A DNA stretch of 55,772 bases from Candidatus Poseidoniales archaeon (GCA_009887195.1 QXXX01000028.1:1-55772), one strand, 5' to 3'. Counted from the first letter of the stretch, positions 7,402 through 53,134 are shown. A program made the numbers and translations. Notes: a model not told the origin generated them from the sequence alone.

Positions 7402-8694
7402 TTAGCCCCAATTACATGGCTCTAATATCTGTTGACCACTCATGTAATTTACTAATGGTTTAGGAATGGTGACTCTTCCATCTGCAAGTTGATTCTGTTC
7501 CATAATCGCAACTAAGGCTCTAGATGTAGCAACTGCAGTGGAGTTTAATGTGTGAACCATCGGTTGGTTAGCATGACCTGGCTGGCCATATTTGATTTGC
7601 AAACGATTGGCTTGGTAATCAGTGCAGTTTGAACATGAAACAATCTCTTTGTATTGACCTGCTCCAGGAATCCAGGCTTCCAAGTCATATTTACGAGCGG
7701 CAACCGTCCCCATGTCGCCAGTACAGATATTTACCACCTCATAGTGAATTTCTAAATCATTCCAAAGGTCAATGCAATTTTGCAGTAATTCTTCATGCAT
7801 TTGCCAAGATTCTTCGGGCTTAGTAATGACGATTTGTTCTATTTTAGTAAATTGATGGACCCGCCAAATTCCTAAATCAGATTGACCATGAGAACCAACC
7901 TCACGGCGAAAACACGGAGATACTCCAACTATCTTCAATGGTAATTGATCCTCTGGTATTGTTTCTTCCATATACATAGCAGTTAGTGGATGTTCAGATG
8001 TTGCAATCATGTAGTAATTATCAGGTGCTACACCATACATAACTGTCTCGAAATCGCTTAAATCAGTAACTCCCTCGTAGGCTTTACGGTTCATCATTAC
8101 AGGAGGTTGAACAAAGGTAAACCCTCTTTGACGCAGAAAATCAACAGTATAATTCTGCAACGCCATCTCTAATCTTGCTAAATCTCCTTTGAGGAAGAAG
8201 AAACGACTTCCAGCAATTTTTGCTGCGCGCTTCAAATCAACCCATTTGTTTAATTCGATAAGTTCATTGTGAGTTCTTGGTTCAAATTCGAATACCGGTT
8301 TTTCACCATATACGCTGTGTAAGGTATTGCCAGATTCATCTGCACCATTCGGGACTTCTTGATGGAGAATATTTGGTATCGACATACGTATTCTATCTCT
8401 ATTTTCGATTGCTTCTTGGGTTTGGTTTTCTAGTTGTGAAATTTCTTTGCCCAATGATGCGACCTCTGCTAAAATTTCTTGCGCTTTGCTTTCATCACCG
8501 GCCTTTTTGGCAGCACTTATGCCCCTAGCAGCAGTATTTTTTTGTTGACGGAGTTGATTTGTTTGGTGTTGTAAGCTCAACCATAATTTATCATATCGAA
8601 TTACTTCGTCGATTTTATCATGCGGAATTCCTCGTTTATCATGATCAGACCTTACTTGCTGATGATTGTCCCTAAACATGTATATATCTAGCAC
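7402..8694 (-). CDS. serS: Seryl-tRNA synthetase
   Basis: 430 aa. It has an N-terminal coiled-coil tRNA-binding arm and a class II core (FRRE.GSHG, TSEHPL, LNSTAVATSRALVAIME). The start lies 8 nt after the stop of the upstream presenilin-like gene. Confidence 0.93.
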   Translation of the reverse strand: MLDIYMFRDNHQQVRSDHDKRGIPHDKIDEVIRYDKLWLSLQHQTNQLRQQKNTAARGISAAKKAGDESKAQEILAEVASLGKEISQLENQTQEAIENRDRIRMSIPNILHQEVPNGADESGNTLHSVYGEKPVFEFEPRTHNELIELNKWVDLKRAAKIAGSRFFFLKGDLARLEMALQNYTVDFLRQRGFTFVQPPVMMNRKAYEGVTDLSDFETVMYGVAPDNYYMIATSEHPLTAMYMEETIPEDQLPLKIVGVSPCFRREVGSHGQSDLGIWRVHQFTKIEQIVITKPEESWQMHEELLQNCIDLWNDLEIHYEVVNICTGDMGTVAARKYDLEAWIPGAGQYKEIVSCSNCTDYQANRLQIKYGQPGHANQPMVHTLNSTAVATSRALVAIMEQNQLADGRVTIPKPLVNYMSGQQILEPCNWG

Positions 8695-8702
8695 AAAAAC
8701 AC

Positions 8703-10955: not shown

Positions 10956-10965
10956 TAATTATGAT

Positions 10966-12297
10966 TTGTCCGCATCTGGAAGGTCTGTGTCTGAGTATGC
11001 TGACCCACGTAATTGGTTAGAGATGACCAAGGAGACTGGCATGGCTCTAGGGCTGCAAAATACCTCTAAACTGCTAAAATTGTTAGACCTTAAGTTATCA
11101 AACACGACAATTATCCACGTCGCTGGAAGCAACGGAAAGGGGACGCTGTGTGCTTTACTGGCAACAAATTTTACTTTAACAGAACAATCAAATGTATTAT
11201 TTTCTTCACCACATCTGTGCCGAGTTGAAGAACGGATAAGAATTGGTGGAGTACCTGTAACAGCCGATCTTTTTGATGAGGCTGTGAAAATGATTCAACT
11301 CGTTAGTATAACCAGCAATATTATTCCAACATTTTTTGAAGTTACTTTTCTAGCGTCCATGATTGTTGCCAGCAAAACAAACGTCAAATTTTTGATTCTA
11401 GAAACCGGACTTGGTGGCCGGTTAGACGCCACAAGATGCGCTCCAGCTGATCTCGCATTGTTAACTTCGATAAGTATGGAACATACAGATATATTAGGTG
11501 GTGAGATAAACCAAATCATCAAAGAAAAAGCAGCAATTGCCAGACCTGGAAAACCAATTATTGCTAGAGTAATGAATACAATTGACTATCAAAAAATTGT
11601 TGAAGACGTGGCACAAAATTGCTACCAAAGTCTAATTGATGGGGAAAAGCAGCCCGCTCAATGCCATTTTATTGACATCCCTGATGGAACAACAGCAAGG
11701 AAAGAAGCACGTATTTTAGCCCAACGAGCACTTACTATTCTAAGTCAAAAGTCTATGTTAGGAGATGCTGAAGAATTATTAAATTGGCCCGGCAGATTGC
11801 AGAGAATTAGTTTGCCTAGTGGCCATAAGATGATTTTGGAAGCAGCCCACAACCCAACCGGTCTTGAAAAAATAAGTCCAGAATTAATGAATTTAATTAG
11901 CACTGAATATAGTGCGCAAAAAACTTGTATTATTTTTGCTACCTCACCCCAACAAGATATGACGGCGATGCTCGATGGAATAGCAACTATCTGCAATGAA
12001 ATTGGCAATGTTGAATTGATTTTGACCAAACCACATGGGGGTAGATATCCAGGTGTTGAACCAAAAATTCTGTCACAATATCCTTGGCCAACTACAGAAA
12101 TTCATCACTACCAACATGTAAGGGACGCTCTTGAAGTGCTGTTACAAAGGGCACCTGAAAAATGCGGAACAATACTTTCAATCGGGTCGCTATACCTTCA
12201 AGGCAATATCTTGACATATCTTGGACTAGATGGCGATGAGGACCTAAGTTTAATTCCGAAGGACTCAAATGTAGTAGAGCATAGCAAAGGCGATTGA
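10966..12297 (+). CDS. folC: Folylpolyglutamate synthase / dihydrofolate synthase (Mur-ligase family)
   Basis: 443 aa with the P-loop HVAGSNGKGT, LETGLGGRLDAT, and an overall FolC layout. The TTG start is only 10 nt from the divergent ORF start, so one or both true starts probably lie further in. Confidence 0.85.
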   Translation: MSASGRSVSEYADPRNWLEMTKETGMALGLQNTSKLLKLLDLKLSNTTIIHVAGSNGKGTLCALLATNFTLTEQSNVLFSSPHLCRVEERIRIGGVPVTADLFDEAVKMIQLVSITSNIIPTFFEVTFLASMIVASKTNVKFLILETGLGGRLDATRCAPADLALLTSISMEHTDILGGEINQIIKEKAAIARPGKPIIARVMNTIDYQKIVEDVAQNCYQSLIDGEKQPAQCHFIDIPDGTTARKEARILAQRALTILSQKSMLGDAEELLNWPGRLQRISLPSGHKMILEAAHNPTGLEKISPELMNLISTEYSAQKTCIIFATSPQQDMTAMLDGIATICNEIGNVELILTKPHGGRYPGVEPKILSQYPWPTTEIHHYQHVRDALEVLLQRAPEKCGTILSIGSLYLQGNILTYLGLDGDEDLSLIPKDSNVVEHSKGD

Positions 12298-12788: not shown

Positions 12789-13847
12789 ATGGGCAGGGTA
12801 TCTATTTCGTTATTATTGACGATAATTATCCTACTCTCAGGATGTATTGACCCACTAGATCCGTTAGACCGAAATAGTGGCGAAGAAGTGGAAGATGCAA
12901 ATTCAGATCCAGAAACTAATCCCGAGCCGGAACCGGAGCCAGAACCCGAACCGGAGCCAGAACCCGAACCGGAGCCAGAACCGGAACCGGAGCCAGAACC
13001 TGAACCAACAGAACCGTGTAATGGAATGCTCATCTTGTGTCTAAGAACGTATGATAATGTTACCTTCCCAGAAACTCATAATGCTTTTGCTACAGAAGAG
13101 GATGGAATAGTTTACCCTGCTGGAAATCATCGAACTGGGCTTGATAAGCAATGGAATGCTGGTATGCGAGCCTTCATGATTGATACCCATTATGAAAACC
13201 TAAATGACGAGAATCTTGATGGCGTAAAACTATGTCACGGAAGCGACGATCGAGGAGTTAGCCCCTGTATTTATGGCAACGTAAGTGCGATTGATTGGCT
13301 TGGAAATTTGAATGATAAAATGGCAGATAATACCCAAGATATTGTTACTCTGTTAGTAGAAAATTATGTTCAACCAGACCATTTGGAACAAGTTTTCATC
13401 ACTTCTGGTTTGATGGATAGAGTATTTATCCACCAATTAAATGATCCATGGCCAACTCTTCAATCAATGATTGACAATGGTACAAACCTAGTGGTATTTT
13501 GGGAACAAGGGGGAGATTCTAGTCATCCATGGATTCATGACTTTCTCACCCATAGTTGGACCACTAATTTTGGAGAAGGAAGTACAGCAGACATGAATTG
13601 TGACGTCTTGCGTGGGGACGGAAATCAGGTAGTGTACCACATGAATAATTGGTTAAGCAATCAAGTTGGTCTCTCCGACCCAACACAGGCTGGTGATGCA
13701 AATGATGTTGATTTTTTGGTTGAAAGAGCTAATGAATGCTGGCAACAACATGGTAAGCGCCCAACCTTCATTGCGGTTGATTGGTGGGAGCAAGGTGATG
13801 TTGTTGCTGCTGCTGAGATGATAAATCTACAGAATGAAGCCAACTAA
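12789..13847 (+). CDS. Lipoprotein with PI-PLC X-domain-like (PLC-like phosphodiesterase) catalytic domain and (Pro-Glu)14 linker
   Basis: 352 aa. It has a signal peptide plus lipobox (LLSGC), a PE linker, and then YDNVTFPETHNAF...AGMRAFMIDTHYE...KLCHG...IVTLLVENYV...WPTLQSMIDNGTNLVVF. I recognise this as the layout of plant/fungal PLCXD-type PLC-like phosphodiesterases. Confidence 0.6.
   Translation: MGRVSISLLLTIIILLSGCIDPLDPLDRNSGEEVEDANSDPETNPEPEPEPEPEPEPEPEPEPEPEPEPEPEPTEPCNGMLILCLRTYDNVTFPETHNAFATEEDGIVYPAGNHRTGLDKQWNAGMRAFMIDTHYENLNDENLDGVKLCHGSDDRGVSPCIYGNVSAIDWLGNLNDKMADNTQDIVTLLVENYVQPDHLEQVFITSGLMDRVFIHQLNDPWPTLQSMIDNGTNLVVFWEQGGDSSHPWIHDFLTHSWTTNFGEGSTADMNCDVLRGDGNQVVYHMNNWLSNQVGLSDPTQAGDANDVDFLVERANECWQQHGKRPTFIAVDWWEQGDVVAAAEMINLQNEAN
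12921..13007 (+). repeat. In-frame CCN-GAR microsatellite (14 consecutive Pro-Glu) with an 18-nt higher-order unit x4
   Basis: The unit CCGGAGCCAGAACCCGAA occurs at 12933, 12951, 12969 and 12987. Two copies are identical, and two differ by one synonymous third-position change (ccc->ccg, ccc->cct). Confidence 0.95.
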
Positions 13848-16800
13848 CCCCAAAAGCGTCTTGTTCTAGCATATTCAACCTCTGCTAGGTGAATCGTTTT
13901 GAGTAATTTATCCCGGTTATTTCTTGGGACTTTACGGAGAATTCTTTGTGCAGTTGCCTCCCCGATACCTCTTCCCATGAGGCATAAAATGGCCTCTTGG
14001 CCCCGGTTTTGAACTATTTCTGCATTCTTAATCATACGATTCCGGTCCGCTGCCTCGTCAGATGAAACCCAATCTTTCAGCATACTAAGCAAGCCCTCAC
14101 GGGCACAAGCAAGCATTCGCCCTTTACATTTCAAACAAATACCAATATCAGGAATTTCATTATACCTTGCAACCCTGAATCTTCGAACACTTTGGCATTT
14201 TAAACAACATAATACCGCTCGTTCATTTTCTAATCTTAAACTAAGACGTTCACGTACTGCTGCGTTATCCCAATTGGGTAAGAGAAGGTCTTTACTTGAC
14301 CTTCTTGAAAGTCCAATGGGACCAGCAGCTGCGACTTCTATTGAAATAACACCTTCCTGAATCGCTCGAAGTACATCACTGGCACCTTCAAGATCCATTT
14401 TTTCGAAAAATAACTTATCCAAAACTTCACGAAGAACTACTGTGCCACGGTATTTTCTTATTAGAGCCTGAAGATTAATTCGACGTGGGTCTACGCCGTG
14501 ACGCAAGATACCGAAGGTTTTGCCAACTTGAGCAAACCTCCAACGAAGTTGCCTTGAGTTCGGCAAAGTTACACTTAGCAAACCCTCTAACGCATCTGGA
14601 GGAGTTTCTGTAAGCCAACTGATAATGTCTTCAGGAGCGACTCCAGATGCTTGTAAGCCGATTCTAGTTGATTCGATTATGAGTCGTCCCCAATTCCCAG
14701 ACTTTGTCGATGCCATAGCCAATATTAGATGACCTAGAGTTTCGTTTATTTTCGTGCCTTGGCATGAATTGATAATTATGGCATCATTTCTTGCCTCTAT
14801 TGTCATCTTTCTGTCGGTCGGTAATACGCCAGACTTTTCCATATGGTTGCCTATTTCATCACTTAACATTCCCAATGCATGTTCGTTGATTGGAAAATCT
14901 GTTAACCTTATTTCATCAGAGGCAAGCAGATTAAACCGATCAATTGAAGAGTTTGCTAATTTTGATGATTCAATTAGTTTTAAGTCTTCAGCAATCAACC
15001 ATCTTAATCGTCCTATATCCCTTGCTACCTCGGCTGGAACAGGAGGTAACTCTCCAAGCCACTGTGGTGCTTTTGCTTGGTCTGATACAGGAACCACCAA
15101 TAATTCTGATTTCTCTGGGTCAGCATCAATAATCATCCAAGTTCTTCCAGCAATTACAAACCGGCGGATTGCCCCATCCTCTTCCTCTCCCGAATCATTT
15201 AGAGAAAGAACAAATGCTTCATCAACGCTACCAATACTTCTCCTAGTTACGCTATCTCTGACTCGATATGATTGCTTGTCAGGAATCATCGATAAGTGTT
15301 TAGATACCCAATCACGGGTTCTACCTGACACTGAAAACCACCCGGTTTCATACCTCTTTGGCAATGTCAACTCTATTCCCTTTATTTTAGCATCTATCTC
15401 TTCTTCAGGGGTTTTGAAAAGTGGCCTTTCTTCTGGTAAAATAATGCCTTTATTTTCAGGCAATAATTGAGATTCTTCGTATATTGATTTAGGCCACCTA
15501 TACCATGGAACACCCTTAGGGTCAGTGACTAATTTTACCAACCAATTATCGGCTATTACTGCCAAAATTTCAATGGTATCATCTCTTTGCCATCCTTCGA
15601 ATTGTGGAGCCTTAGCAATGATTGCCGTCGCTTCATCAATAGTAATCGCTTTGAAACTATGCGCCATCAAAATTAATTGATTGACCACAACTGTACGGGG
15701 CATATTGCGCCAAATTACTGGCTCAAGTTCGCCTCTCATGGCTCTTTCTCCGATTACTGCTGCTTCTGATAATTCATCACAATCCCAAGCAAAAATATTA
15801 CCTCGGCCAATACCGCCCAAACGATGGTCTGCTCGCCCTACTCGCTGTAATAACCGGTCGACTGAACGCGGGCTCTTGATTTGGATTATGCGATTGATTA
15901 AGCCAATATCAATACCTAGTTCTAAACTTGAAGTGCAGACTAATCCTGACACTTTTCCAGACCGTAGACCATCTTCCATCTCGATTCTTGTCTCGGTGGC
16001 TAGAGAACCATGGTGAACACCGATATCAAGTTCTGGTGCCATTTTTTGTAACCTATTGGCAATTGTTTCTGCATCACTTCGACTGTTAACAAACAGCAAG
16101 CACGGAGAATCTTTTCTTATAATCTCGATAATATCACGAAAAATAGCGTGAGCTCTTGAAGGAATAGCATATTCAATACCACCAGTCTCATCGATAGTCT
16201 CTGGAAAAGCGGTTTCTACAACAATTTCAGTAACTCTTTTACCAGTTTCAATAATTGTTTCCCCGTCATTAGACAGCCATTTAGCCACCTGATGAGGGTT
16301 GCCAACCGTAGCAGATAATCCAATTCGTTGAACTTTATTTCCAGATAATGTTTCTAATCTCGACAACCCTAAAGATAACTGCCAACCCCTTTCACTAGCA
16401 GCCAGGTCATGAACCTCGTCAATGATTATGGCTTTGACTGTTTTTAGTAATTCTCGGAGATTTTTTCCAGTGAACATTAATTGGAAGGTTTCAGGGGTGG
16501 TAATGAGAATATCTGGTGGTTTACGTACTTGTTTGGCTCGTTCACTTTGGGTGGTATCGCCATGTCTAAGACCAACTCTCAAACCAACAGATTCAGCGAT
16601 TTCTTGCAGCCTTCGGTCAACATCTCGATTAAGGGCGCGCAGTGGAGTAACATACAGGATTGACAACGGTTCCCATTGTTCTACTAAACATCGATTTATT
16701 ACCGGTAAGATTGCTGAAAGAGTTTTTCCTGAACCAGTTGGTGCGATTAACAACCTATCATTACCATCGATGATTTGTGGTATGGCTGACTCTTGAATTG

Positions 16801-42353: not shown

Positions 42354-44579
42354 ATGTCAGGTCAAAATGAAACTATCTCACTAACGGTAGAAAAGTCAAT
42401 ACCATCAGATGTTGGACACGGAAGAGCAAGAATTTCGGGAGACTCAGGACTCGATTTAAAGCCTGGTGACATTGTACTAATCAAAGGTGAAAAGCGCTCT
42501 ACTGCAGCCATATATTGGCGCAGTAGGCCCGAAGATAATAAAATGGCAATTATTAGAATCGACGGAATTATCAGAAAGAACGCAGGAGTTAGCCTTCGAG
42601 ACAAAGTTACCGTTTCAAAAGTAGATGCTGAGGAGTGTAAAAAACTGATTATATCGCCAGTAATGGCTAACAAACAGAAAGTCAAATTTGGCCCAGGTAT
42701 CGAAGGATTTGCTCGCCGTGGCTTGCAAAACCGCCCGGTAGTACAAGGTGACAGGATTTTCATTCCAGGAATGACCCTCTTCGCAGAAGCACTACCGTTT
42801 GCTGTGGTGCAAACCACCCCAAAAGGGGTAGTCAAAGTCACTAATGACACTGATATTGTTATCAAAGATGAAGCAATAGATGACGATGACATTGGCCAAT
42901 CAGAAGGAATCACTTACGAGGATGTTGGTGGCATTGGTCAACAATTGTTGAAAGTTCGAGAAATGATTGAATTACCATTAAAGCATCCTGAGCTATTCCG
43001 CAGACTGGGGATTGACCCGCCAAAAGGAGTACTCCTACACGGCCCTCCTGGCACCGGAAAGACAATGATCGCCAAGGCTGTTGCAACTGAAACCAATGCT
43101 CACTTCAAGAGTATCAACGGCCCGGAAATTATCAGCAAGTATTATGGTGAATCCGAAAAGCAACTTCGAGAGATTTTTGATGATGCTGCCGATAACGCCC
43201 CGGCAATAATTTTCATTGACGAAATAGATTCAATTTGTCCCAAGCGTGAAGATGTGAGCGGTGAAGTTGAGCGAAGAGTTGTGGCTCAAATGCTGACCTT
43301 GATGGATGGTATGCAAGGCCGCGATAATGTTGTCGTGATTGGAGCAACAAATCGACGTGATGCATTAGACCCAGCCCTTAGAAGGCCGGGCAGATTTGAC
43401 AGAGAGATCGAGATTGGAGTCCCGGACAGAGACGGACGTAGTGAAATCATGGACGTACATACTAGACAAATGCCGATTTCAGAAGATTTTGACATCACAT
43501 GGATTTTAGACAATACCTACGGATTTGTCGGAGCAGACCTTGCCGCACTAGTAAGAGAAGCAGCGATGAAGGCGCTTAGGAGATACTTACCAGAAATTGA
43601 CTTAGAAGATGAGACTATTCCACCTGAAGTACTAGAAAAGATGGAAGTGTGTATGGATGATTTCCAGCATGCTATCAAGGATATTGAGCCGTCTGCACTA
43701 CGTGAAATATATGTCGAAGTTCCTGAAGTTACTTGGGAAGAGATTGGTGGATTAGAAGAAGTCAAAAGTAGACTAAAAGAATCTGTGGAATGGCCACTTA
43801 CTAAACCCGAATTGTTTGAACACTTTGGAATCAAACCACCTCGAGGAATCGTAATGTTTGGTGCACCAGGTACGGGTAAAACTCTGTTAGCCAAAGCAAT
43901 AGCTAATGAAGCACAGGCTAATTTTATCAGCATCAAGGGTCCAGAAATGATTTCTAAATGGGTTGGAGAATCAGAACGAGCAGTCCGTGAAATATTCAAA
44001 AAAGCCAAACAATCATCGCCTTCGATTATTTTCTTGGACGAGTTTGAATCTATTGCTAACATGCGCTCGTCTAATTCCAGCGAAGGAAGCGACGTTTCTA
44101 ATCGTGTAGTCAACCAACTCTTAGCCAGCATGGACGGAGTTGAATCAATCGACGGCGTGATTGTAGTTGCGGCTACTAATCGACCAGAGATGATAGATCC
44201 AGCTTTACTAAGAAGTGGCAGATTTGAGCGAGTATTGCACGTCCCTCCGCCCGACATTGGAGCAAGAGAGGCCATCTTCAACATACATTGTAAGGGTATG
44301 CCTCTGTCCAAATTCTCCATCAAAGACATTCTAAAAGGATTAGATGGATTTACCGGCGCAGACATTGAAGCTGTTTGCCGTGAGGCCGCACTAATATGCA
44401 TGCGGGCTAACAAAAAGAAAGTCACTAAGGCTCACTTTGAAGAGGCAATCGGCAGAGTAAGACCTACAGTAACTCCAGAGATGCTTGATTATTATCAAAA
44501 AATGGAAGCAAGACTTACATCTGGAATGTCAAACATTAGGCGCTCGAAAGACTTCTCCCACGGCATTGAAACAATGTGA
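42354..44579 (+). CDS. cdc48: CDC48/VCP-type AAA+ ATPase (two AAA domains plus N domain)
   Basis: 741 aa with a double-psi-barrel-like N domain. The Walker A motifs are GPPGTGKT and GAPGTGKT, with DEID and DEFE Walker B motifs and SRH regions. GGAGCGA lies 5 nt before the ATG. Confidence 0.95.
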
Positions 44580-44647
44580 GATTGACAGAGTCACCGACGC
44601 ATTGAAGGAGTAAACAACCCTCATCGTATCATACGGGGTAATCACAT

Positions 44648-44887
44648 ATGGCTATTTTTGCAAATGAAATATTTGGCAGAGATGTAGTCGATTCCCATAA
44701 CGAAAAACTTGGCGAATTACGTGATTTTGTGATTGATAAATTATCCGGCTCAGTCACCCAAATTGTCGTGAAACTTGAAGCAAATTTAGACCCTGGAATG
44801 CTACCTTGGGAATACCGTAATGGATTGTTAAATATCCCAATTGATGATGTATCGAGAATCTCAAATAGAATACATTTGCGAAAGTAA
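44648..44887 (+). CDS. Small PRC-barrel domain protein
   Basis: 79 aa. The pattern EIFGRDVVDSHNEKLGELRDFVIDKLSGSVTQIVVKL is typical of a PRC barrel. Confidence 0.7.
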   Translation: MAIFANEIFGRDVVDSHNEKLGELRDFVIDKLSGSVTQIVVKLEANLDPGMLPWEYRNGLLNIPIDDVSRISNRIHLRK

Positions 44888-44980
44888 GTTGCAATGAGCA
44901 TTTTAGCCTCAACAATAGACAACATTCTAAACTAAACGCCGAGCGTGTAGTGTCGGAATTACGCTCTAGTAGGTGCTGAT

Positions 44981-46591
44981 ATGGTTGAGTGGCGGGAAAT
45001 TAACTATCGAAGATTCGGTCTACAAACCGCTTTCTGGTCGGTTATGTTCGTTCTCCTGCTCATGATTTTGAGTAACTTTATTAATTTATCAAATACTAAT
45101 CAATTATCCGCTTATGATGATGATTGGAATGATATGTCTGCTTTTCGCCAAGATATCAAAGATATGGGTATTGAAACTAGATCACTAGTTAGCAGCCCAT
45201 TACTGTTAGCAGATATTGAAGACCCAAGAAACACAACTTATGTTGTCGCTGGAGTTGAAAGAGATACCTTATCACTACCACAGTTTGATGATGATGGATT
45301 TATTACAATAGCCTCTGATGATGGTTATTCACCTTCAGAGGTTGACGCGATTGTGACTTTTGTTGAAAACGGCGGCACAGCAATAATTCTAGAAGATTAT
45401 GGTTTTGCTGGCACTATCGCAGAAGCCTTTGGAGTGCGGTATAACGGCTATCAGTTATTTGATACAACATATGTTCCTGAACTAAACTTCAATTATGTAT
45501 GGATGTGCGTGCAGACCACTCCTTGCAGCATGAATGGCAGTCAAATTGATACAGACTCTCTTTCAACTCACGAAAGGTGGGCTGATACTTCATCCGCATT
45601 GAGTGCTCACCCGTGCGCTATTGCCAATGGCCAAGCAGTTACATTGGAAGATTCAGGAGTATGTGCACATCATTGGTCTGACGGAGAAATTGCATACAAT
45701 GGCACATATAGGGTACTGCTAAACAATATTACAGCGTTAGAATTAATCCCAAACTCAAACAACCCTCTTTCTGAACTAGCGATACGAGCCGTTACTAGTA
45801 ACGAAGCAAGTATTGACGTCAATGGTGATGGAAAACTAGTGGTAAGCGCAATACAAAGTGAAGAAACTCCAGACCTTTATGGAAGATTCAACCTTAGTAT
45901 TGAAGCCTGCGCAAAGTCTACTTGTAATCCAGATGATGGAGGTCGGGTCTTCTTTGTTTCAGATGGTTCTCCTTTAATCAATGCAATATACGACTACTCT
46001 GGTTTTGCAGAGGGTGAGTACGGCCCCACTGATACCGAAATTCCAGCAAATGACAACAGAAAATGGGCATTAGATATTATTGCTGAGGCAATGATGACCA
46101 GCATCCAAGATGATGGTTTGGAACCGTCAGAAAACGCGATGGTGATATTCGATGAATCAAGACACCCACAGAATGCCGTATTAGCAGATTCATACAATAC
46201 AATTTATTTCTTATTGGTATACTTTACCGGGGAAGGATTGGCTATGTTAGTACTATTCCTAATCCTATTCATTGCTTTTGAAGCTGTGCTGATTAGGAAG
46301 AAAGACCCTGATAGTTGGCGACATGTATTTTCAATTATTTACTACGGGTTTGGTGATGCAAATAGATATCCCTATTATTCCAAAGTGGAAAAGATTAGAC
46401 AGGTGTTCCTCTCTAAGGTTAGAAACCAAAATGGCCTTACTAGAGAAGAATTCCATGCGATGTCTGCTCGTGAATTGGTTGCGCTAATTAACGACCCAAC
46501 CTTAGCAAAATTTGCTATTGAACCCACTAAGTATTCTCTAGAGCAAACTGTGTCTATTGTAAAACGTGTCAAAGCATGGGGAAGGCGGTGA
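44981..46591 (+). CDS. Bitopic membrane glycoprotein-like protein, DUF4350-like (hypothetical)
   Basis: 536 aa with TAGGTG-N5-ATG. It has an N-terminal TM, a ~370-aa sequon-rich outside domain, a C-terminal TM and a ~100-aa tail. The segment AYDDDWNDMSAFRQDIKDMGIE...TYVVAG...IVTFVENGGTAIILEDYG resembles the DUF4350 pattern. Confidence 0.45.
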   Translation: MVEWREINYRRFGLQTAFWSVMFVLLLMILSNFINLSNTNQLSAYDDDWNDMSAFRQDIKDMGIETRSLVSSPLLLADIEDPRNTTYVVAGVERDTLSLPQFDDDGFITIASDDGYSPSEVDAIVTFVENGGTAIILEDYGFAGTIAEAFGVRYNGYQLFDTTYVPELNFNYVWMCVQTTPCSMNGSQIDTDSLSTHERWADTSSALSAHPCAIANGQAVTLEDSGVCAHHWSDGEIAYNGTYRVLLNNITALELIPNSNNPLSELAIRAVTSNEASIDVNGDGKLVVSAIQSEETPDLYGRFNLSIEACAKSTCNPDDGGRVFFVSDGSPLINAIYDYSGFAEGEYGPTDTEIPANDNRKWALDIIAEAMMTSIQDDGLEPSENAMVIFDESRHPQNAVLADSYNTIYFLLVYFTGEGLAMLVLFLILFIAFEAVLIRKKDPDSWRHVFSIIYYGFGDANRYPYYSKVEKIRQVFLSKVRNQNGLTREEFHAMSARELVALINDPTLAKFAIEPTKYSLEQTVSIVKRVKAWGRR

Positions 46592-46595
46592 TAAA

Positions 46596-47849
46596 ATGTG
46601 GACAAGAAAAGCAGCATTCACATTTACCGGTGGTATTGCCTTAATTCTTATTGGAATGATGATTTCCAATAACCAAATGATGATTCTAGGTTTGGCCTTA
46701 ATCGCTTTTATTGTGGTAAATTCTTGGATATCAGGCCACGGAGATGTAGAAGTGCAGCGAACACTATCTGCTGATAATCTTTACAAAGGCGACGACCTAT
46801 ATGTTGAACTACTCATCACCAATCGATCAAATCGTAAAACCCAATTGCTCGAAGTGTACGATAACATTCCCCACGAGATGAAACTAAGAAGCGGGCTTAA
46901 TCAAATGCGCCTAAACCTTAGCCCCGGAGAAAGCGCTAGAATTCGTTATGTCCTTCGCTGCCCGCTCAGAGGACATTACTCGATTGGTCCTGTCTCATTG
47001 AGGTCAAGAAATACCTTCAATCTAGGAGTTGAAGAAATGTTTGTTGACCATCACAGTGACATTGTGATATTCCCTCAAATAAAAGAGGTAGAAGAGGCCT
47101 TTTTACGCTCTCGCACTCCGAAAATGTATACTGGAGCAACTACTCTTAGAACCCCAGGGCAAGGTTCAGAATTCTACTCCCTACGTGAATACGTCCCTGG
47201 AGACCCGTTCAAAAATATCAACTGGAAAGCGTATGCAAGAACTGGAGAATTGATGGTGAACGAGAAGTGCCGAGATGCGGTAACTGATTTGTATCTATTA
47301 ATTGATTCAAGAGATATTGCGCGAATTGGAACGGTACTGAAAAACCCCTTGGAAATGAGCACAGTCTCTGCTGCAAGTTTAGCAGCATTCTTCCTTAAAC
47401 GTCGAGATTCTGTAGCTCTTGGAATATACGGCGAAAAATTATCATACTTACCACCAGATACTGGAGATAAGCAATATTTCAAAATTCTAAGTGCTCTTGC
47501 TGGGGTTTCAGCAAAGGGTGAGATGCCGTTACAAGCAGTGACTAACTCTTTGAGCGGGAGATTTAGTAGAGGCAGCCCTGTGTTCGTAATTTCATCATGT
47601 GAAGGCGATGGAACCGTGCCTGCAGCTGTAAGGGACTTGGTTGGAAGAGGACACGAAGTAACAGTATTATCACCTTCTAGTATTGACTTTGAAAGATTGG
47701 TCAGCCGTATTCCTCGAATGTCATATGAGGTGTTAAAATTAGAACGTCAAAACCGACTAACTACCTTAGCAGGGTCTGGTGCACAGGTAATTGATTGGAT
47801 GCCTGACATGGATTTATCTCAAGCATTGATGCAAGTGAGGGGGTACTAA
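46596..47849 (+). CDS. DUF58 family protein (vWA-like, normally a MoxR partner)
   Basis: It carries the signature FYSLREYVPGDPFKNINWKAYARTGELMVNE, an N-terminal TM hairpin and an Ig-like spacer. I prefer the ATG at 46596 (GGCGGTGA upstream); the ORF is open from the GTG at 46566. Confidence 0.85.
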   Translation: MWTRKAAFTFTGGIALILIGMMISNNQMMILGLALIAFIVVNSWISGHGDVEVQRTLSADNLYKGDDLYVELLITNRSNRKTQLLEVYDNIPHEMKLRSGLNQMRLNLSPGESARIRYVLRCPLRGHYSIGPVSLRSRNTFNLGVEEMFVDHHSDIVIFPQIKEVEEAFLRSRTPKMYTGATTLRTPGQGSEFYSLREYVPGDPFKNINWKAYARTGELMVNEKCRDAVTDLYLLIDSRDIARIGTVLKNPLEMSTVSAASLAAFFLKRRDSVALGIYGEKLSYLPPDTGDKQYFKILSALAGVSAKGEMPLQAVTNSLSGRFSRGSPVFVISSCEGDGTVPAAVRDLVGRGHEVTVLSPSSIDFERLVSRIPRMSYEVLKLERQNRLTTLAGSGAQVIDWMPDMDLSQALMQVRGY

Positions 47850-47850
47850 A

Positions 47851-49074
47851 ATGGCTGAAGATGTCCAAGTTCAAAGTGACGTCACCATTACCGGTAGCGC
47901 CAAGGCAAGAACTTTACATTTGAAAACATTAAGAAAACAATGGCAAATCATCACATTGCAAATCATCGCCACAGCCGCCCTAATTGGGATGTATCTCGAG
48001 GTTGTATCAACATATGTGGTAGGAACAATTGACCATACAATCTTATTTTCTTCTATTGAATCACTCATTGGCAGTGATTTACCATTAGGTAAATGGTTTA
48101 CTGGTCAAGGAAGAACTGGTCTGGCTAGGTTCTTTGTCCCCTTAGCCATTGGATTATTAGTCGGAGGATTGATGGCATTAGTGGCATATCAAACACCTAA
48201 GACTCAACAAAGATTGAAACTTGGTTTCATCATTACCTTAATCACACTACTAGTTGGAAGACTAATTCTTGGTTGGCTAACTGGAATGATTTTCTCCTTT
48301 GACATTAGATTACCAGACGATGGTGAATTACAAACTCTGGAATGGCCATTATTGATGATAATGTCTTTGTTAATCATGTTCGTTTACCTACTACCAATCA
48401 TTATGGGGTCCAGAGGGATTTGGGGGTTATCGAAGAAATCTATCGCTTGGGCTATTGGTTTCACTCTTTTATTCCTCGGCATACATGCGATCTTGACATT
48501 CCCATTAATCAAATCCCAATTGGGAGATTATGGCGGTGCTTTGGCGACTCTAGAATCACAAATCTCACAACCAACAATTGGACTATTTGGGATTAAACTA
48601 GTGACTAGTGAACAGTTTGACCTAATTCTGATTGCGGTGCTAATACTTGTATTCCAAGAATCTGCATTTGGAGTCATCAAGTATCTAGAATATGCTTTCA
48701 GACTTCCTGAATCATGCAAGAGAGACCCTGAATATGTTAATCAAATGGATAACATGTTGAATACTCATTTGATGCACACCTTTGGGTTCTTGGGGCTTAC
48801 TGGTATTGCCACCATGGTGGCACTGGGCTTCCACAGCGTATTACTTAGCTTGGTCAGTGACACTACTGGCAGTCAATGGGCAGGGCAAGTATCTGAATCA
48901 ATTGAATTGTCGTTAACTTATGGACTGGTTATTTCAGCAGTAATGTTCCTATCATTCATGGCCCTACTTAGGTATCTAATCCCTTGGCAACGGATATGGG
49001 GATTCACCTATTCTTTGCGAAATAATAATCCTAGCGAAAATGAGAAACCAGAAAAAGAATTCATTGAGTTCTAG
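47851..49074 (+). CDS. Polytopic membrane protein (hypothetical)
   Basis: 407 aa with roughly 9-10 TMs. The ATG lies 1 nt after the DUF58 stop, with GAGGGGGT upstream, so the two are translationally coupled. Confidence 0.6.
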   Translation: MAEDVQVQSDVTITGSAKARTLHLKTLRKQWQIITLQIIATAALIGMYLEVVSTYVVGTIDHTILFSSIESLIGSDLPLGKWFTGQGRTGLARFFVPLAIGLLVGGLMALVAYQTPKTQQRLKLGFIITLITLLVGRLILGWLTGMIFSFDIRLPDDGELQTLEWPLLMIMSLLIMFVYLLPIIMGSRGIWGLSKKSIAWAIGFTLLFLGIHAILTFPLIKSQLGDYGGALATLESQISQPTIGLFGIKLVTSEQFDLILIAVLILVFQESAFGVIKYLEYAFRLPESCKRDPEYVNQMDNMLNTHLMHTFGFLGLTGIATMVALGFHSVLLSLVSDTTGSQWAGQVSESIELSLTYGLVISAVMFLSFMALLRYLIPWQRIWGFTYSLRNNNPSENEKPEKEFIEF

Positions 49075-49076
49075 AC

Positions 49077-49325
49077 CTAATCTCTAGACATCGATTGAAT
49101 AAATCGACCAATCATTTCTGTGCTAAACAATAGTATGAATGGAAATAAGCAATATGTAGCAAATACAGAAAATATCCCTTCACCTGTTTGTTCACTAACT
49201 GCTTGATGGCCAAAAATGAAAATTGCTATTGCCACTAATAAGGCAATTCGCTCCATTAAATGGGGATATTTACGACCGATTGATTCAGTACGGCCTAATA
49301 GTGTAGATGCCTGATTATTGGACAT
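49077..49325 (-). CDS. Small 2-TM membrane protein (hypothetical), last gene of the Roadblock operon
   Basis: 82 aa. The ATG is preceded by AGGTG with 5-nt spacing, and the upstream gene's TAG stop lies inside that TAGGTG. Confidence 0.55.
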   Translation of the reverse strand: MSNNQASTLLGRTESIGRKYPHLMERIALLVAIAIFIFGHQAVSEQTGEGIFSVFATYCLFPFILLFSTEMIGRFIQSMSRD

Positions 49326-49333
49326 TACAACAC

Positions 49334-52300
49334 CTACAAATCAAGGTCAGATAATTTAGTTTCAAGGTTTTCAAGTGCATTACTTTTGACCACGGAAGGC
49401 TCAGACCTATGTTCCCAAGATGCATCAATTCGGGCAAGTTCGGCTTCCAGTGCCGCCCTCTCATCATCATCGCTGATTGGTTGTAGTTCAACAAATTCTG
49501 CTTCCGCTTCATCATCAGTAGATGAGTCATCAGGCAAATCTAAGGTTTCCCAACCATCTTCATCAACTGAAACATGAGATACCTCTTCCTCTAGCATCGC
49601 CTCTCCAGAAATATTAGATTCCATGTGCTTGACCATTTCTTCATCAATTGGAGTTTTTTGGGCTGGGTCGATTACTTCCCTTTCATATGGTAACAAACCA
49701 TCTCTTTGGAAATCCCATAGTAGTCCGCTTGGAGAACCACCTGCTAATCCTGATGCATCAATTTGAGTAATCAATTCTTCAAGCACTCTTGCGGTTTCCT
49801 CCAATGCGATTGCCTCACCAGCATCTCTTTGATCGGATTCTAGATAAATATCATCAAGTGCTTTTTGGATTAGTTTTCTTGTTGCTTGAGCGATGTAGGG
49901 TAGAGATTCTGGCCGGTTGCAATTCGACATTAGGTTTTCAACTTCTTGAGGTGGCGCACCTAATCTTGTTAACTGTTCAAGGACGTTCCTCAGCCTTCTT
50001 AGCATAGTAATCGAGTGATCATAATCCTCTAGAAGACGTTCTAAATCAATAACTAAATTTCCAACAGTCTCACCAAGTTGGTGTTCCAACCTTTGTTGCA
50101 CAGACCATCTTGAGAGACCTCTAACAGCACCAGCAGTTTGTGGCACCTGTCTTTCTAATAGCTCCATAACTTCGCTTGATAAGAGATAACGAGGGGTTGC
50201 TGCAACGTGGTCTACGGTCTTTTGAATAACTTGTAAAGCCCGCTCAACCGCTCTATCGAGTAATGTTACAGAATAGCCCAAACTCCTTGAACGTTCGAGC
50301 CTTTCTAGTACCGGAGCTAGCCCCTCAAAGGTTGAAGCATCGTCGAGTAGGGCTTGAGCAAGCGGTTCTTCAGCCAGTCTTGCTCTAATTCTATCGGCTT
50401 CATTTATGTCTGCCAAAGCTTCTTCATGGGCTTGTGACAACTGTTTAGCATTCTCTACAAGAATGGTTAATTCACCCTCAGCATGACCACGTTTAGCGCC
50501 TAAATCTCCCAATTCTCGAAGCAGGTTTCTGCGCTCTTGCATTAATTGACGCATTTCACCTTGAATCTGGGCGAAGCGGGCTTCATCTGTGCTCAATCTT
50601 ATTCTTTCGTCTTCAGCTCGGCGCCTTGCGACCTTTGCCTCAGATTCGATTATTTCTAATTCTGATTTGCTCTTATTGACACGCTCTTCCTCTTTCATGG
50701 CTTCTGCCTGAGCCCGAGCATGCCGTTCTCTAGATGCTGAAACTTGTTCCTGTAGCACTCGTAATCTGCGTTCATCATCCTCAGTTTGTTGCCTGATGCT
50801 GCCCAATTTTTCACTTGCAGATGACAATTCGGCATTTAATCCAGCTTCCTTAAGGGACATATCTTCAATTGATTGGCGTAATTGTTCACTTGATTCTGTC
50901 TCACCAAGAGCCTTAGCTAGTTCTGTCGCTCTAACACTTACTTGGTGTTCTAGTTCATTTACTCGCTTAACTAACTTACCAGCTCGGGTCTCTGCTTCAT
51001 CTGTTCGATTTCTTGCTTCAGCTAATTCCACCTGCATTGAATTGATTTCGGAGTTAACATTCTCAACGCTCTCTACCTGCATATTTCTCGTTTCAATCGC
51101 TTCTCTAGTTTTAATTTCAGCGGCTTTTCGTGATGCATCAGCAGAAGAAAGTTTGGAATTCAGCAAGGATTTCTCTTTTTCCAAATCATCGATCTTTAGT
51201 TCAGCCGATTCTAATCTTCGTCGCAGGCCTGCATCTATTCCTGGAGCAGGAGTGAGTTCTACCTGTTCTAACCCTTTACTAACTCCATCCTTAGTTTGAA
51301 CAAAGTTGGCTTTAGCCCGTGAGATTCTAAGAGCTTCCATGCCAATTTCAAAACCGATTAATGAGTTTAAGCGGTTAGCAAGATTCGCCCTACGACTTTC
51401 TGACTTTGTTCTAACTGTGACTAGTAAATCTTTGAAGTGTGAAAGGCTAAATTCATTGATAGTACCAGATTCTCTAGTTAGAATAGTTCCTGCTGGCAAT
51501 CTATGTAGCCGAATTACTCGTCTAGCTTCAGTAAGTCCAAGCATTGCTTCTTCAAACGATTCAGTCGCAGGTGCGAAGATTCCTACTGGTATTCCTCGGG
51601 ACAAAATTAAACTCACGGCTTTGGAAGATTTACCAGACTGGATGTGTCCTGTAACACCCTCTTCAATAGCATCTGCAAGCATTGAAAGTACTGCGTCTGC
51701 ACCTCCTTTACCCTCTCGTAAAATGAAGCCATCAGGCAATGGTTCACCAAATCCTGGACCGGTTGAAACCTCTCCTTCCAGAGCTGCTGCTGCTGCATTG
51801 ATAATTCTGGTATGGTCAGCATTTGCTTCAGTCCATACAGCAATTGCAATTTCGCCTGTGTGGGCAAGAAGTAGTGCTCCATCACCTGTATGTAAAGTCC
51901 AATGTCCGCCATCAGTAAATCCTAATCCTTGGGCTAATTTTTCACGTCCGGCAATTGTTTCACCGACTTCTTTTGCGAGTGTTTCACCATCAGTTGGCAA
52001 ATCCCCTGCCGAATCAATAAGCATGCCAGCATCAACAGCAATTGCTCCTCTAACTGCAACATTGTTGACCAATTTAGCCAAAACAACCGACAAATCTCTT
52101 GATAGTAAACGTTCAACAGAGTCACCCTTAGGCATTAGACCTTGAGCATCAACTGGGTGCTCAAACGCTTCTGGAATAACCTCGGCAACTGAACCTAGCC
52201 CAGTCATAGAATAACTCTGAGCTTCATAGCGACACATACCTTCTGCTTCAATTTCCAGAAGACGTTGCTTTGCCTCGCTTCCACCAAGAAGAATTGACGA

Positions 52301-52477
52301 TTTGTCACTTTCTGCAAGGTAACCCACCGTACGACCTGCACGAATTATTCGGTGACCTGCAGGTGTCTTCCGCTTGCCAATCCAAGTGGTTATCACGCCA
52401 TGTTCAAAGGATTGAATAACCCCCTGTGAGACATCAATTTCGGTTTCTACGGCTATTCCTTTTGGTAAGTCAAACAT
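49334..52477 (-). CDS. 1047-aa multidomain protein: PATAN/DUF4388-like, Roadblock/LC7-like, second PATAN-like, long coiled coil, helical region, acidic tail
   Basis: Residues ~122-236 (LSRDLSVVLAKLVNNVAVRGAIAVDAGMLIDSAGDLPTDGETLAKEVGE...GALLLAHTGEIAIAVWTEANADHTRI) fit the Roadblock/LC7 pattern. Residues ~5-80 and ~250-330 share a G..TG.I....(K)...(I/L)I(R/S).G..VG....EA...L pattern. Residues ~418-705 are heptad-rich and E/R/K/A/L/Q-dominated. The last ~100 aa are D/E-rich. Confidence 0.6.
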   Translation of the reverse strand: MFDLPKGIAVETEIDVSQGVIQSFEHGVITTWIGKRKTPAGHRIIRAGRTVGYLAESDKSSILLGGSEAKQRLLEIEAEGMCRYEAQSYSMTGLGSVAEVIPEAFEHPVDAQGLMPKGDSVERLLSRDLSVVLAKLVNNVAVRGAIAVDAGMLIDSAGDLPTDGETLAKEVGETIAGREKLAQGLGFTDGGHWTLHTGDGALLLAHTGEIAIAVWTEANADHTRIINAAAAALEGEVSTGPGFGEPLPDGFILREGKGGADAVLSMLADAIEEGVTGHIQSGKSSKAVSLILSRGIPVGIFAPATESFEEAMLGLTEARRVIRLHRLPAGTILTRESGTINEFSLSHFKDLLVTVRTKSESRRANLANRLNSLIGFEIGMEALRISRAKANFVQTKDGVSKGLEQVELTPAPGIDAGLRRRLESAELKIDDLEKEKSLLNSKLSSADASRKAAEIKTREAIETRNMQVESVENVNSEINSMQVELAEARNRTDEAETRAGKLVKRVNELEHQVSVRATELAKALGETESSEQLRQSIEDMSLKEAGLNAELSSASEKLGSIRQQTEDDERRLRVLQEQVSASRERHARAQAEAMKEEERVNKSKSELEIIESEAKVARRRAEDERIRLSTDEARFAQIQGEMRQLMQERRNLLRELGDLGAKRGHAEGELTILVENAKQLSQAHEEALADINEADRIRARLAEEPLAQALLDDASTFEGLAPVLERLERSRSLGYSVTLLDRAVERALQVIQKTVDHVAATPRYLLSSEVMELLERQVPQTAGAVRGLSRWSVQQRLEHQLGETVGNLVIDLERLLEDYDHSITMLRRLRNVLEQLTRLGAPPQEVENLMSNCNRPESLPYIAQATRKLIQKALDDIYLESDQRDAGEAIALEETARVLEELITQIDASGLAGGSPSGLLWDFQRDGLLPYEREVIDPAQKTPIDEEMVKHMESNISGEAMLEEEVSHVSVDEDGWETLDLPDDSSTDDEAEAEFVELQPISDDDERAALEAELARIDASWEHRSEPSVVKSNALENLETKLSDLDL

Positions 52478-52481
52478 AATA

Positions 52482-52823
52482 TCACATCATTGGAGTGGTT
52501 GCTAATATCCTTCGGTTTCTATCTAAAGCATGGCGCCACTGGGCTAAGCGGCCTGCTTGGCCGGCTAGGACTGTAATTCTGCCTGGTCCGGCTATATCGA
52601 TCATCATTCGACTTTCACCTTCTGACCAAATCTCGTACAGTGTCCCCAACTCTAGGGTGGAGCATAACTCTACAGCAGCATTCACTGACTGTATGGCCTT
52701 CTCAGCGGGAGGAACTTGTCCCTCGCTTCCAACACATGCTAACAGGTTACCTGACTCATCAAGTAGCATTGCTTGATCAACGCCTTCAGTTTTGGTTAAA
52801 CCAGCCAGAACTCGTTGTAACAT
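52482..52823 (-). CDS. Roadblock/LC7 (MglB-like) domain protein
   Basis: 113 aa. LAGLTKTEGVDQAMLLDESGNLLACVGSEG...AAVELCSTLELGTLYEIWSEGESRMMIDIAGPGRITVLAGQAGRL matches the Roadblock/LC7 consensus over its full length. The stop lies 4 nt before the next ATG. Confidence 0.8.
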   Translation of the reverse strand: MLQRVLAGLTKTEGVDQAMLLDESGNLLACVGSEGQVPPAEKAIQSVNAAVELCSTLELGTLYEIWSEGESRMMIDIAGPGRITVLAGQAGRLAQWRHALDRNRRILATTPMM

Positions 52824-52877
52824 AGTCGCTCAAAATGTCCGTGAGCGTTGTAGGCTTCAAGAAGTTTTGCGTTTATT

Positions 52878-52892
52878 CCCCCCTACGGGGGG
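52878..52892. other. Perfect GC hairpin CCCCCC-TAC-GGGGGG in a long divergent intergenic region
   Basis: C6 at 52878..52883, TAC, then G6 at 52887..52892, plus a flanking T-A pair. It lies ~55-70 nt upstream of the Roadblock start on the minus strand. Confidence 0.5.
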
Positions 52893-53028
52893 ATTTGACG
52901 GGTAAAATCAAATATCCAACTGGAGTTGAAAGAAAAGTCACGCGGAAGCGCCTTTATTACCCACTTTCCGCGCAATATTGCTGCCGATAAGTGGATGAAT
53001 AATTTGACTTTTATAAAATAAATTTTGT

Positions 53029-53052
53029 AATTGGAAATTTGATTTTCCAATT
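53029..53052 (+). promoter_or_regulatory. Candidate operator: inverted repeat AATTGGAAA-N6-TTTCCAATT just downstream of a TATA-like TTATAAAA
   Basis: The arms are 53029..53037 and 53044..53052. TTATAAAA lies at 53011..53018, and the ATG of the tRNA thiolase gene is at 53135. Confidence 0.35.
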
Positions 53053-53134
53053 GGATAATTACTACATCTGTTTTTGGCACTTGATGAGAATAAACATGCG
53101 ATGAACTCAAACACTAGGCGGTTTTCGACATTTC

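Follow-up and report, generated by a model that had tools for sequence, protein, structure and literature searches.

Roadblock/LC7 proteins of the MglB type classically regulate GTPases. What, then, do such proteins do at a locus where no GTPase is recognised? We addressed this question for a trio of adjacent genes from Candidatus Poseidoniales archaeon (Poseidoniaceae, Marine Group II). The genes lie on the minus strand of QXXX01000028.1, a stretch of 55,772 nucleotides (nt) that was analysed whole and is called the window below. They encode a small standalone Roadblock protein, a giant protein with a second Roadblock domain embedded in it, and a short membrane-like protein. We put the probability at about 40% that this is a Poseidoniales-only operon encoding a non-enzymatic scaffold complex built around Roadblock domains. 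The genes and their junctions, in reading order, are as follows.

52482..52823, minus strand: gene 1, standalone Roadblock/LC7 protein of 113 amino acids (aa) (open reading frame, ORF; PF03259 in orthologues)
52478..52481, minus strand: junction of 4 nt (tatt) from the gene 1 stop codon (TGA) to the giant ATG; a Shine-Dalgarno (SD)-like GATGTGAT spans the stop codon
49334..52477, minus strand: gene 2, giant protein of 1047 aa (ORF)
49326..49333, minus strand: junction of 8 nt (gtgttgta) from the giant TAG stop codon to the gene 3 ATG; the stop lies inside an SD-like TAGGTG, then TTGTA, then the ATG
49077..49325, minus strand: gene 3, protein of 82 aa with two hydrophobic segments (ORF; hydropathy)

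A preliminary description, made from this DNA alone, had listed three minus-strand ORFs separated by gaps of 4 nt and 8 nt. It had also placed the giant stop codon inside TAGGTG, five nucleotides ahead of the ATG of the 82-aa frame. Both observations are exact for the window. The stop/GGTG pattern recurs in orthologues, where the end of the giant gene reads tagGTG or tgaGGTG. The Roadblock-to-giant junction in orthologues is GATGTGAT or GAGGTGAT, again across the Roadblock stop codon. GGTG is the core of the archaeal SD sequence. When 80 species-level genomes were checked, the distance from the Roadblock stop codon to the giant ATG was -8 to +11 nt in 78. Because GGTG over the stop codons and the short gaps are both conserved in orthologues, co-translation of the trio from one mRNA can fairly be inferred.

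Gene order and distribution of the trio

A phmmer search with giant residues 1–415 against 1.84 billion representative sequences returned 66 matches. These were giant-family members or fragments, plus one spurious immunoglobulin (Ig)-repeat protein (P0221) as the only match outside the family. The full-length proteins among these matches measure 1020–1089 aa; over every full-length relative, the length is about 1020–1104 aa and the architecture stays fixed down to 25% identity. In a pattern scan of one genome per species, a giant relative was present in at least 239 genomes. The best 80 of these (at least 239) are all Poseidoniales, including CM001443.1, the original Marine Group II chromosome, except for one evidently mis-binned contig. 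The giant gene on this contig (L098; NZEQ01000033.1, labelled 'Verrucomicrobiales bacterium isolate ARS100') is full-length and 57% identical to that of the window. The contig almost certainly comes from Poseidoniales and was placed in a bacterial metagenome-assembled genome by a binning error. A profile search with the gene 1 family, two distant members included, gave 97 matches, all from Poseidoniales, with no outgroup. Judged by these searches, the trio is confined to the order Poseidoniales.

Adjacency was counted over the best 80 species-level genomes, 79 of which were testable. The Roadblock gene lies directly upstream of the giant gene in 78 of the 79, and the gene for the two-transmembrane protein directly downstream in all 79. 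Gene order is the same in deep clades (loci L029, L032, L033, L034 and L035), where the giant protein is 25–36% identical. In the most distant clade (L028–L030; giant 25% identical) an FG-GAP gene is inserted between the giant and two-transmembrane genes. The FG-GAP protein has 448 aa and a C-terminal transmembrane helix; its gene (13221–14567) overlaps the giant 3′ end by ~50 nt. Synteny across Poseidoniales, which the preliminary description had named as a check, thus holds even where giant proteins share as little as 25% identity.

The trio could instead be neighbours by descent only. In that case there would be no complex: the giant protein would act on its own as a structural coiled-coil protein, and each small gene would function independently. 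The whole ~12-gene block is indeed syntenic order-wide, from the TtuA-like gene through the trio, multi-transmembrane protein, DUF58, DUF4350, PRC-barrel protein and Cdc48 to aldehyde dehydrogenase. Moreover, one locus (L031) lacks both small genes and the FG-GAP gene parts giant and two-transmembrane genes in L028–L030. The two-transmembrane protein also evolves far faster; its homologues are 34–88% identical within Poseidoniaceae, compared with 63–98% for the giant protein. However, the gaps of -8 to +11 nt and the SD-over-stop motifs are kept across large divergence. These conserved junctions, read from sequence, lend some weight to functional linkage. Each small Roadblock family member that we looked up, namely the two distant ones, lies directly upstream of a giant gene, and two adjacent Roadblock units suit a dimeric fold. 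We consider descent alone a distinctly unlikely explanation.

Domain anatomy of the three proteins

The 113-aa protein of the window scored 18 bits against PF03259 (E 0.0024; model positions 3–73 of 91), where the cutoff is 23. The family was matched by 29 of 30 gene 1 orthologues (best E 2.8e-7), and a distant Thalassarchaeaceae-type orthologue (L033) reached 23.8 bits, above the cutoff. Several orthologues carry a precomputed PF03259 assignment and the Joint Genome Institute (JGI) name 'regulator of Ras-like GTPase activity (Roadblock/LC7/MglB family)'. The sole full-length match of the family profile in the PDB, the Asgard Roadblock protein 7yh1_D, was weak (E 0.12). In the alignment, the C-terminal helix is basic and invariant in the family (GRLARWRHALDRxRRI). 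The identification of gene 1 as a Roadblock/LC7 protein, first proposed from the window, is therefore sound at family level, where the PF03259 cutoff is reached; the window sequence itself falls short of it.

The giant-family alignment comprised 13 diverse full-length relatives. Residues 1–397 of the giant protein were modelled with AlphaFold2 (AF2) at a mean confidence (predicted local distance difference test, pLDDT) of 83, giving three domains, D1 to D3. From N-terminus to C-terminus, the protein is composed as follows.

52145..52477, minus strand: D1, alpha/beta domain, residues 1–111 (AF2, pLDDT ~85–93)
51776..52102, minus strand: D2, Roadblock/LC7 fold, order a-b-b-a-b-b-b-a, residues 126–234 (AF2, Foldseek, profile)
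51413..51727, minus strand: D3, alpha/beta domain, order b-a-b-b-b-a-b-a, then a long helix, residues 251–355 (AF2)
50429..51400, minus strand: long helical coiled-coil-like segment, residues ~360–683 (SMC/Rad50/JetC arms; AF2 long helices at both ends)
49658..50428, minus strand: C-terminal all-helical domain, residues ~684–940 (alignment; AF2 pLDDT ~75–90)
49337..49657, minus strand: acidic, largely disordered tail, residues 941–1047 (net charge -27, isoelectric point 4.05; low pLDDT, two short helices)

The modelled helices (H) and strands (E) of D2 are H126–137, E142–149, E152–158, H164–185, E192–196, E201–207, E210–216 and H222–234. In Foldseek searches of the PDB, the top 50 matches of D2 were all Roadblock, MglB or LAMTOR structures (E down to 3e-6, probability 1.00, template modelling (TM) scores 0.61–0.80). 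They include Asgard Roadblock proteins (9jue, 7yh1, 7f8m), MglB (6hjm, 6h5b, 3t12, 1j3w), LAMTOR2/3 and the CvnB-like 3kye. Consistent with this, the family profile matched CvnB5 (3leq) at positions 132–226 with E 1.3e-4. Weaker profile matches at the same positions (131–226) were 7f8m, Rv3364c, 7yh1 and LAMTOR4. Pfam Robl_LC7 was found in 5 of 13 giant-family members (best E 1.8e-4); the giant sequence of the window alone had no Pfam match. Model and profiles together indicate that giant residues 126–234 are a true Roadblock fold. The second Roadblock-like segment that had been proposed at residues 120–240 is thus supported by the AF2 fold, by 50 of 50 Foldseek matches and by the CvnB5 profile match. 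Similarity between the D2 profile and the 113-aa family was weak (hhalign E 0.005, probability 8%). Hence, D2 and gene 1 are not recent duplicates.

The preliminary description had labelled both domains flanking the Roadblock segment as PATAN (DUF4388; PF14332). At E ≤ 10, PF14332 matched neither the N-terminal regions of the 13 members nor the isolated D1 and D3 segments. The positive control in the same scan, a synthetic PATAN-like sequence, scored 90.4 bits (E 1e-25). Because it reached 90 bits against PF14332, this synthetic sequence was used as a proxy probe. D3 aligned with the probe at an hhalign score of 12.2, which 8 of 40 shuffled probes equalled or bettered. The score of D1 was 13.0, and 4 of 40 shuffled probes scored as high. 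The D3 alignment was in the expected register (TG.I / G.PVG / EEA), without significance relative to the shuffles. The Foldseek PDB matches listed for the head were Roadblock folds alone, with no PATAN structure. The profile searches therefore upheld the Roadblock part of the description and not the PATAN label, since there was no PF14332 match and the hhalign scores fell within the shuffled range. D1 and D3 may be diverged PATAN domains; we treat this as a lead, not a finding. Compared with each other by hhalign, D1 and D3 were weakly similar (E 0.036 over 100 columns), and D1 is possibly a diverged copy of D3. D1 itself had no match in Pfam.

If the lead were correct, the trio could regulate a type IV filament motor (archaellum or pilus) in the manner of PATAN proteins. 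The flanking domains would bind an assembly ATPase or platform protein, as in cyanobacterial regulators of the PixE/PatA type, and the Roadblock units would provide polarity input. PATAN domains bind PilB1 and PilC (bioRxiv 10.1101/2021.06.11.447907). According to PMC4316618 and to Makarova et al. 2006, which it cites, genes for PATAN proteins often lie close to those of MglA/MglB homologues. Archaellum-type motility loci, some divergent, occur in Poseidoniales (PMC9287336). The likeness to PixE and PatA consists of this genomic association with MglB homologues and a pattern-level resemblance of D3 (and D1), seen in the register of the D3 alignment. However, the similarity has no statistical support, as the PF14332 scan and the shuffled probes show, and the giant protein has neither a REC domain nor an alpha-clip insertion. 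The phmmer search with the N-terminal 415 residues matched nothing outside the family, and neither the window nor the related loci contain a gene for an archaellum or pilus. We hold regulation of a filament motor to be very doubtful.

The remainder of the giant protein agrees with the preliminary description, which had given it a ~290-residue coiled coil and an acidic tail. The coiled-coil-like stretch covers ~290–300 residues, matches SMC and Rad50 arms and forms long helices in AF2. Pfam and NCBIfam searches with the giant protein gave no more than this coiled-coil noise. The scores were 35.8 bits for TIGR02168 (cutoff 567), 24.8 for Rad50 (cutoff 1087) and at most 19 bits for JetC. We rejected an identity as an SMC, Rad50 or JetC ATPase; the matches cover arms only and fall far below cutoffs, and there is no ATPase head and no conserved P-loop. 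A defence system was also considered. PADLOC gave JetC/LmuB coiled-coil noise only and, for this reason, we do not regard the trio as such a system.

The C-terminal domain (residues ~684–940) is the best-conserved part of the giant family, with dense invariant columns from 684 to 932. It had no match in Pfam and no sequence match in the PDB (FliS, at E 0.16, was noise). Foldseek comparison of this domain with the PDB gave a best E of 1.5 and TM scores of at most 0.3. By these sequence and model comparisons, it is a helical domain of a new type with no relative in Pfam or the PDB. The tail ends in an amphipathic peptide, L-x-x-L-E-x-x-L-x-D-L-[DE]-[LIF]-COOH, that is conserved in 12 of 13 diverse members. 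This terminal peptide looks like a docking motif, and we list it as putative.

The string GHIQSGKS (giant residues 277–284; 51628–51651), in a strand-loop of D3, was evaluated as a nucleotide-binding site. We discarded it as a chance fit to the Walker A pattern [AG]xxxxGK[ST]. The form GHIQ[SA]GKS is kept only in the closest clade; elsewhere the segment reads GHLSVGAG, GYIRAAKD and others. In family and motif scans, none of the three proteins showed a domain for catalysis or nucleotide binding.

Gene 3 had been described as encoding a protein with two transmembrane segments. Hydropathy agrees, with transmembrane-like peaks at residues ~20–45 and ~48–72. The motifs KYP..lER and E.IGR.IQ are conserved in this fast-evolving protein and remain recognisable in distant clades (L022, L029, L032 and L033).

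The GTPase question and the scaffold reading

No small GTPase was detected in the 55-kb window, either by a P-loop scan or when the other 46 large ORFs were compared with Pfam. The P-loops present belong to Cdc48, an Lhr-type helicase and one non-conserved chance string. Neither the window nor any of 33 related loci (597 kb) has an ORF that combines G1 (GxxxxGK[ST]), G3 and G4. Similarly, no GTPase family appeared in any Pfam listing of the neighbourhoods of related loci. The statement of the preliminary description that no ORF in the window resembles a small GTPase is thereby confirmed, and a cognate GTPase is not routinely adjacent in relatives. Because none is present in the window or the 33 related loci, a rearranged ordinary MglA/MglB locus is not indicated. 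The same description had treated the absence of a neighbouring GTPase as unusual. This does not hold, since 328 of 749 MglB homologues are orphans with no MglA within four genes (Wuichet and Sogaard-Andersen 2014, PMC4316618). None of these orphans had been characterised by 2014 (PMC4316618).

The trio might still be an ordinary MglB-type regulator, a platform for GTPase activation (GAP) or nucleotide exchange (GEF), with its GTPase encoded elsewhere. The giant protein would then be a polar or membrane landmark that localises the switch. The classical role of Roadblock/MglB proteins and the frequency of orphan MglB genes favour this explanation. The structural neighbours of D2 include MglB–MglA complexes (6h5b, 6izw, 3t12) and the conservon protein CvnB, and orphan MglA-family GTPases are known, for example SofG (PMC4316618). 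However, the scans for G1, G3 and G4 and the Pfam listings were negative, and the group 4 (archaeal) MglA proteins are reported almost only in methanogens (PMC4316618). In addition, MglB contributes no catalytic residue and therefore leaves no sequence signature. We rate a GTPase regulator of the usual kind as rather unlikely.

Comparison with known systems separates fold from setting. MglB is the GAP of the small GTPase MglA in Myxococcus xanthus and Thermus thermophilus. D2 shares its fold (6hjm, 6h5b, 3t12, 1j3w; TM scores 0.65–0.79), the 113-aa protein belongs to PF03259, a C-terminal helix follows the last strand and a role in regulation or polarity would be expected. Unlike MglB, the trio has no MglA-like gene within 55 kb or at related loci, sequence identity is 15–24% and one Roadblock unit is embedded in a coiled-coil protein of ~1050 aa. 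At the sequence level, the embedded domain matches CvnB5 (3leq) best among PDB entries (E 1.3e-4). However, the actinobacterial conservon has four genes, encoding the histidine kinase CvnA, CvnB, CvnC and the GTPase CvnD, whereas CvnA, CvnC and CvnD are all absent here, the neighbourhood of the trio containing neither kinase nor GTPase. Asgard Roadblock proteins (9jue, 7yh1, 7f8m) are the top structural matches of D2 (E 3e-6, TM score ~0.78). They differ in being single-domain proteins from another phylum with no coiled-coil fusion, and have been studied in the context of small GTPases (PMC10933270).

Two systems offer precedents for Roadblock units that bind each other. MglC of M. xanthus, the adaptor between MglB and RomR, is a Roadblock protein that binds another Roadblock dimer and not a GTPase (PMC4719450, PMC7949163, PMC10329633). 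For the proposed pairing of the 113-aa protein with D2, MglC offers the best precedent. However, MglC works inside a GTPase-centred polarity module, and its kinship to the trio is the shared fold. In Ragulator, the lysosomal scaffold of eukaryotes, a small anchor, LAMTOR1, attaches a stack of Roadblock dimers to the membrane. LAMTOR2, 3 and 4 are structural or sequence neighbours of D2, and LAMTOR2/3 stack with the Rag C-terminal domains. The differences are a lipidated wrap-around anchor in place of the putative two-transmembrane anchor, and no Rag GTPases here; the resemblance is architectural only.

By sequence, then, the trio is built from the Roadblock/LC7 kind but fails the gene-neighbourhood hallmark of both the MglA/MglB module and the conservon. 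What is new is a fixed, order-specific fusion with two alpha/beta domains and a new helical domain. The preliminary description had not recognised this architecture as a described system. We concur; sources call the protein hypothetical, and our literature search found no work linking Poseidoniales and Roadblock proteins.

From the domain anatomy and its conservation, we infer a complex, a membrane tether and a partner. Docking of the small Roadblock protein on the embedded Roadblock domain would produce a heterodimer or a stack of two dimers. This step is suggested by the MglC–MglB precedent and by the dimeric nature of the fold. To our knowledge, all solved Roadblock structures are dimers. 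Through its coiled coil, the giant protein would dimerise and gain length, and the two-transmembrane protein would tether the assembly to the cytoplasmic membrane. A partner encoded elsewhere, most likely a nucleotide-dependent switch or motor, would be recruited or regulated by the Roadblock platform together with the C-terminal domain and the tail peptide. In this way, the complex would position envelope or cell-organisation machinery and would not catalyse a reaction. The earlier idea of a membrane-tethered scaffold or polarity device is a reasonable proposal.

Several points weigh against a scaffold complex. Such a complex is a prediction derived from sequence and modelling, for organisms that have not been cultured. 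A small GTPase is possibly encoded elsewhere in the genome; the scans covered the window and related loci. Adjacency of the trio is weak functional evidence, because the entire surrounding block is conserved and adjacency could partly be inheritance. Finally, the giant gene of L031 (P0166, 33% identity, 7694–11587) lies beside neither small gene. Hence, the giant gene can exist without them, at least at that locus, which is a single contig from a deep clade (Logan SRR12463106, 69% GC) in which an assembly error is possible.

The upstream element, the flanking genes and their context

Alignments of the region upstream of gene 1 identified the following elements, listed towards the ATG.

52824-53134, minus orientation: spacer of 311 nt separating the Roadblock gene from the divergent TtuA-like gene
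53021-53054, minus orientation: two CCAATTGGAAAAT boxes
52941-52973, minus orientation: inverted repeat GCGCGGAA-N19-TTCCGCG
52901-52922, minus strand: CAGTTGG..ATTTGATTTTACC box
52877-52893, minus strand: G/C hairpin TCCCCCC-GTA-GGGGGGA
52853-52868, minus strand: AAAACTTCTTGAAGCC motif, 45 nt before the gene 1 ATG

Distant clades (L033 and L034), with giant proteins 25–36% identical, also have the AAAACTTCTTGAAGCC motif at -43 to -46 relative to the ATG, a position that is fixed across the order. Complementarity of the hairpin is kept between clades as its sequence varies (CCCCCC/GGGGGG, CCGGCCC/GGGCCGG and CCACCCCCGCC/GGCGGGGGTGG). The spacer fold is modestly more stable than that of shuffled sequences, with a minimum free energy z-score of -2.3. 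No Rfam family matched the spacer, and RNAalifold found no compensatory pairs within Poseidoniaceae. The element at 52853..52922 is likely a promoter or operator together with a structured 5′ leader. L031, where no small genes are recognised, keeps the CAGTTGG and CCAAACCTCTTGAAC upstream motifs.

A bolder form of the scaffold reading makes use of this element. The trio would be a Poseidoniales invention, a GTPase-independent, membrane-anchored landmark for the cytoskeleton or polarity, assembled from Roadblock units and coiled coil in a Ragulator-like manner. Its C-terminal domain and acidic peptide would recruit envelope or division machinery, and its expression would be under the control of the conserved structured 5′ leader/operator. 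In this full form, we think the proposal unlikely.

The window is an ordinary chromosomal region. It includes ThrRS, SerRS, a signal-peptide peptidase, an Lhr-type helicase, Hjc, a site-2 protease, a DAC-domain protein, succinate dehydrogenase, carotenoid genes and Cdc48. The trio is flanked on one side by the TtuA-like PP-loop enzyme and on the other by the multi-transmembrane protein, DUF58 and DUF4350. The genes on this second side (42354-49074, plus strand) are convergent with the trio and conserved order-wide, also in L028–L035.

42354-44579, plus strand: Cdc48, convergent neighbour
44648-44887, plus strand: PRC-barrel protein of 79 aa (PF05239, E 2.6e-9)
44981-46591, plus strand: DUF4350, convergent neighbour
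46566-47849, plus strand: DUF58, 94–100% identical across Poseidoniaceae
47851-49074, plus strand: multi-transmembrane protein of 407 aa, convergent neighbour

Sets of DUF58 and DUF4350 genes usually accompany a MoxR AAA+ ATPase. Here, the sole AAA+ neighbour is Cdc48. The longest frame in the gap between Cdc48 and DUF4350 is a 98-aa ORF on the minus strand (44629-44925) with no family match; the overlapping 79-aa PRC-barrel ORF on the plus strand is the real gene.

The uncultured Poseidoniales (Marine Group II) rank among the commonest archaea in surface ocean waters, and hardly anything is known of their cell biology. Lineage-specific conserved operons of unknown function are numerous. The trio is conserved and abundant, and mechanistically unsurprising. 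It fits the picture of gene origination in the order, where 392 gene-family originations were inferred at the base of Poseidoniales, few with arCOG relatives (Sheridan et al. 2022, PMC9287336). Because the trio is order-restricted, occurs in at least 239 species-level genomes and has an architecture fixed to 25% identity, it likely serves a core, lineage-defining cellular function. The trio is also a natural test case for orphan Roadblock/MglB proteins, a question that was open in 2014 (PMC4316618). Should the Roadblock pair prove to act as a scaffold tethered to the membrane and independent of a GTPase, this would broaden the known archaeal uses of the ancient Roadblock fold.

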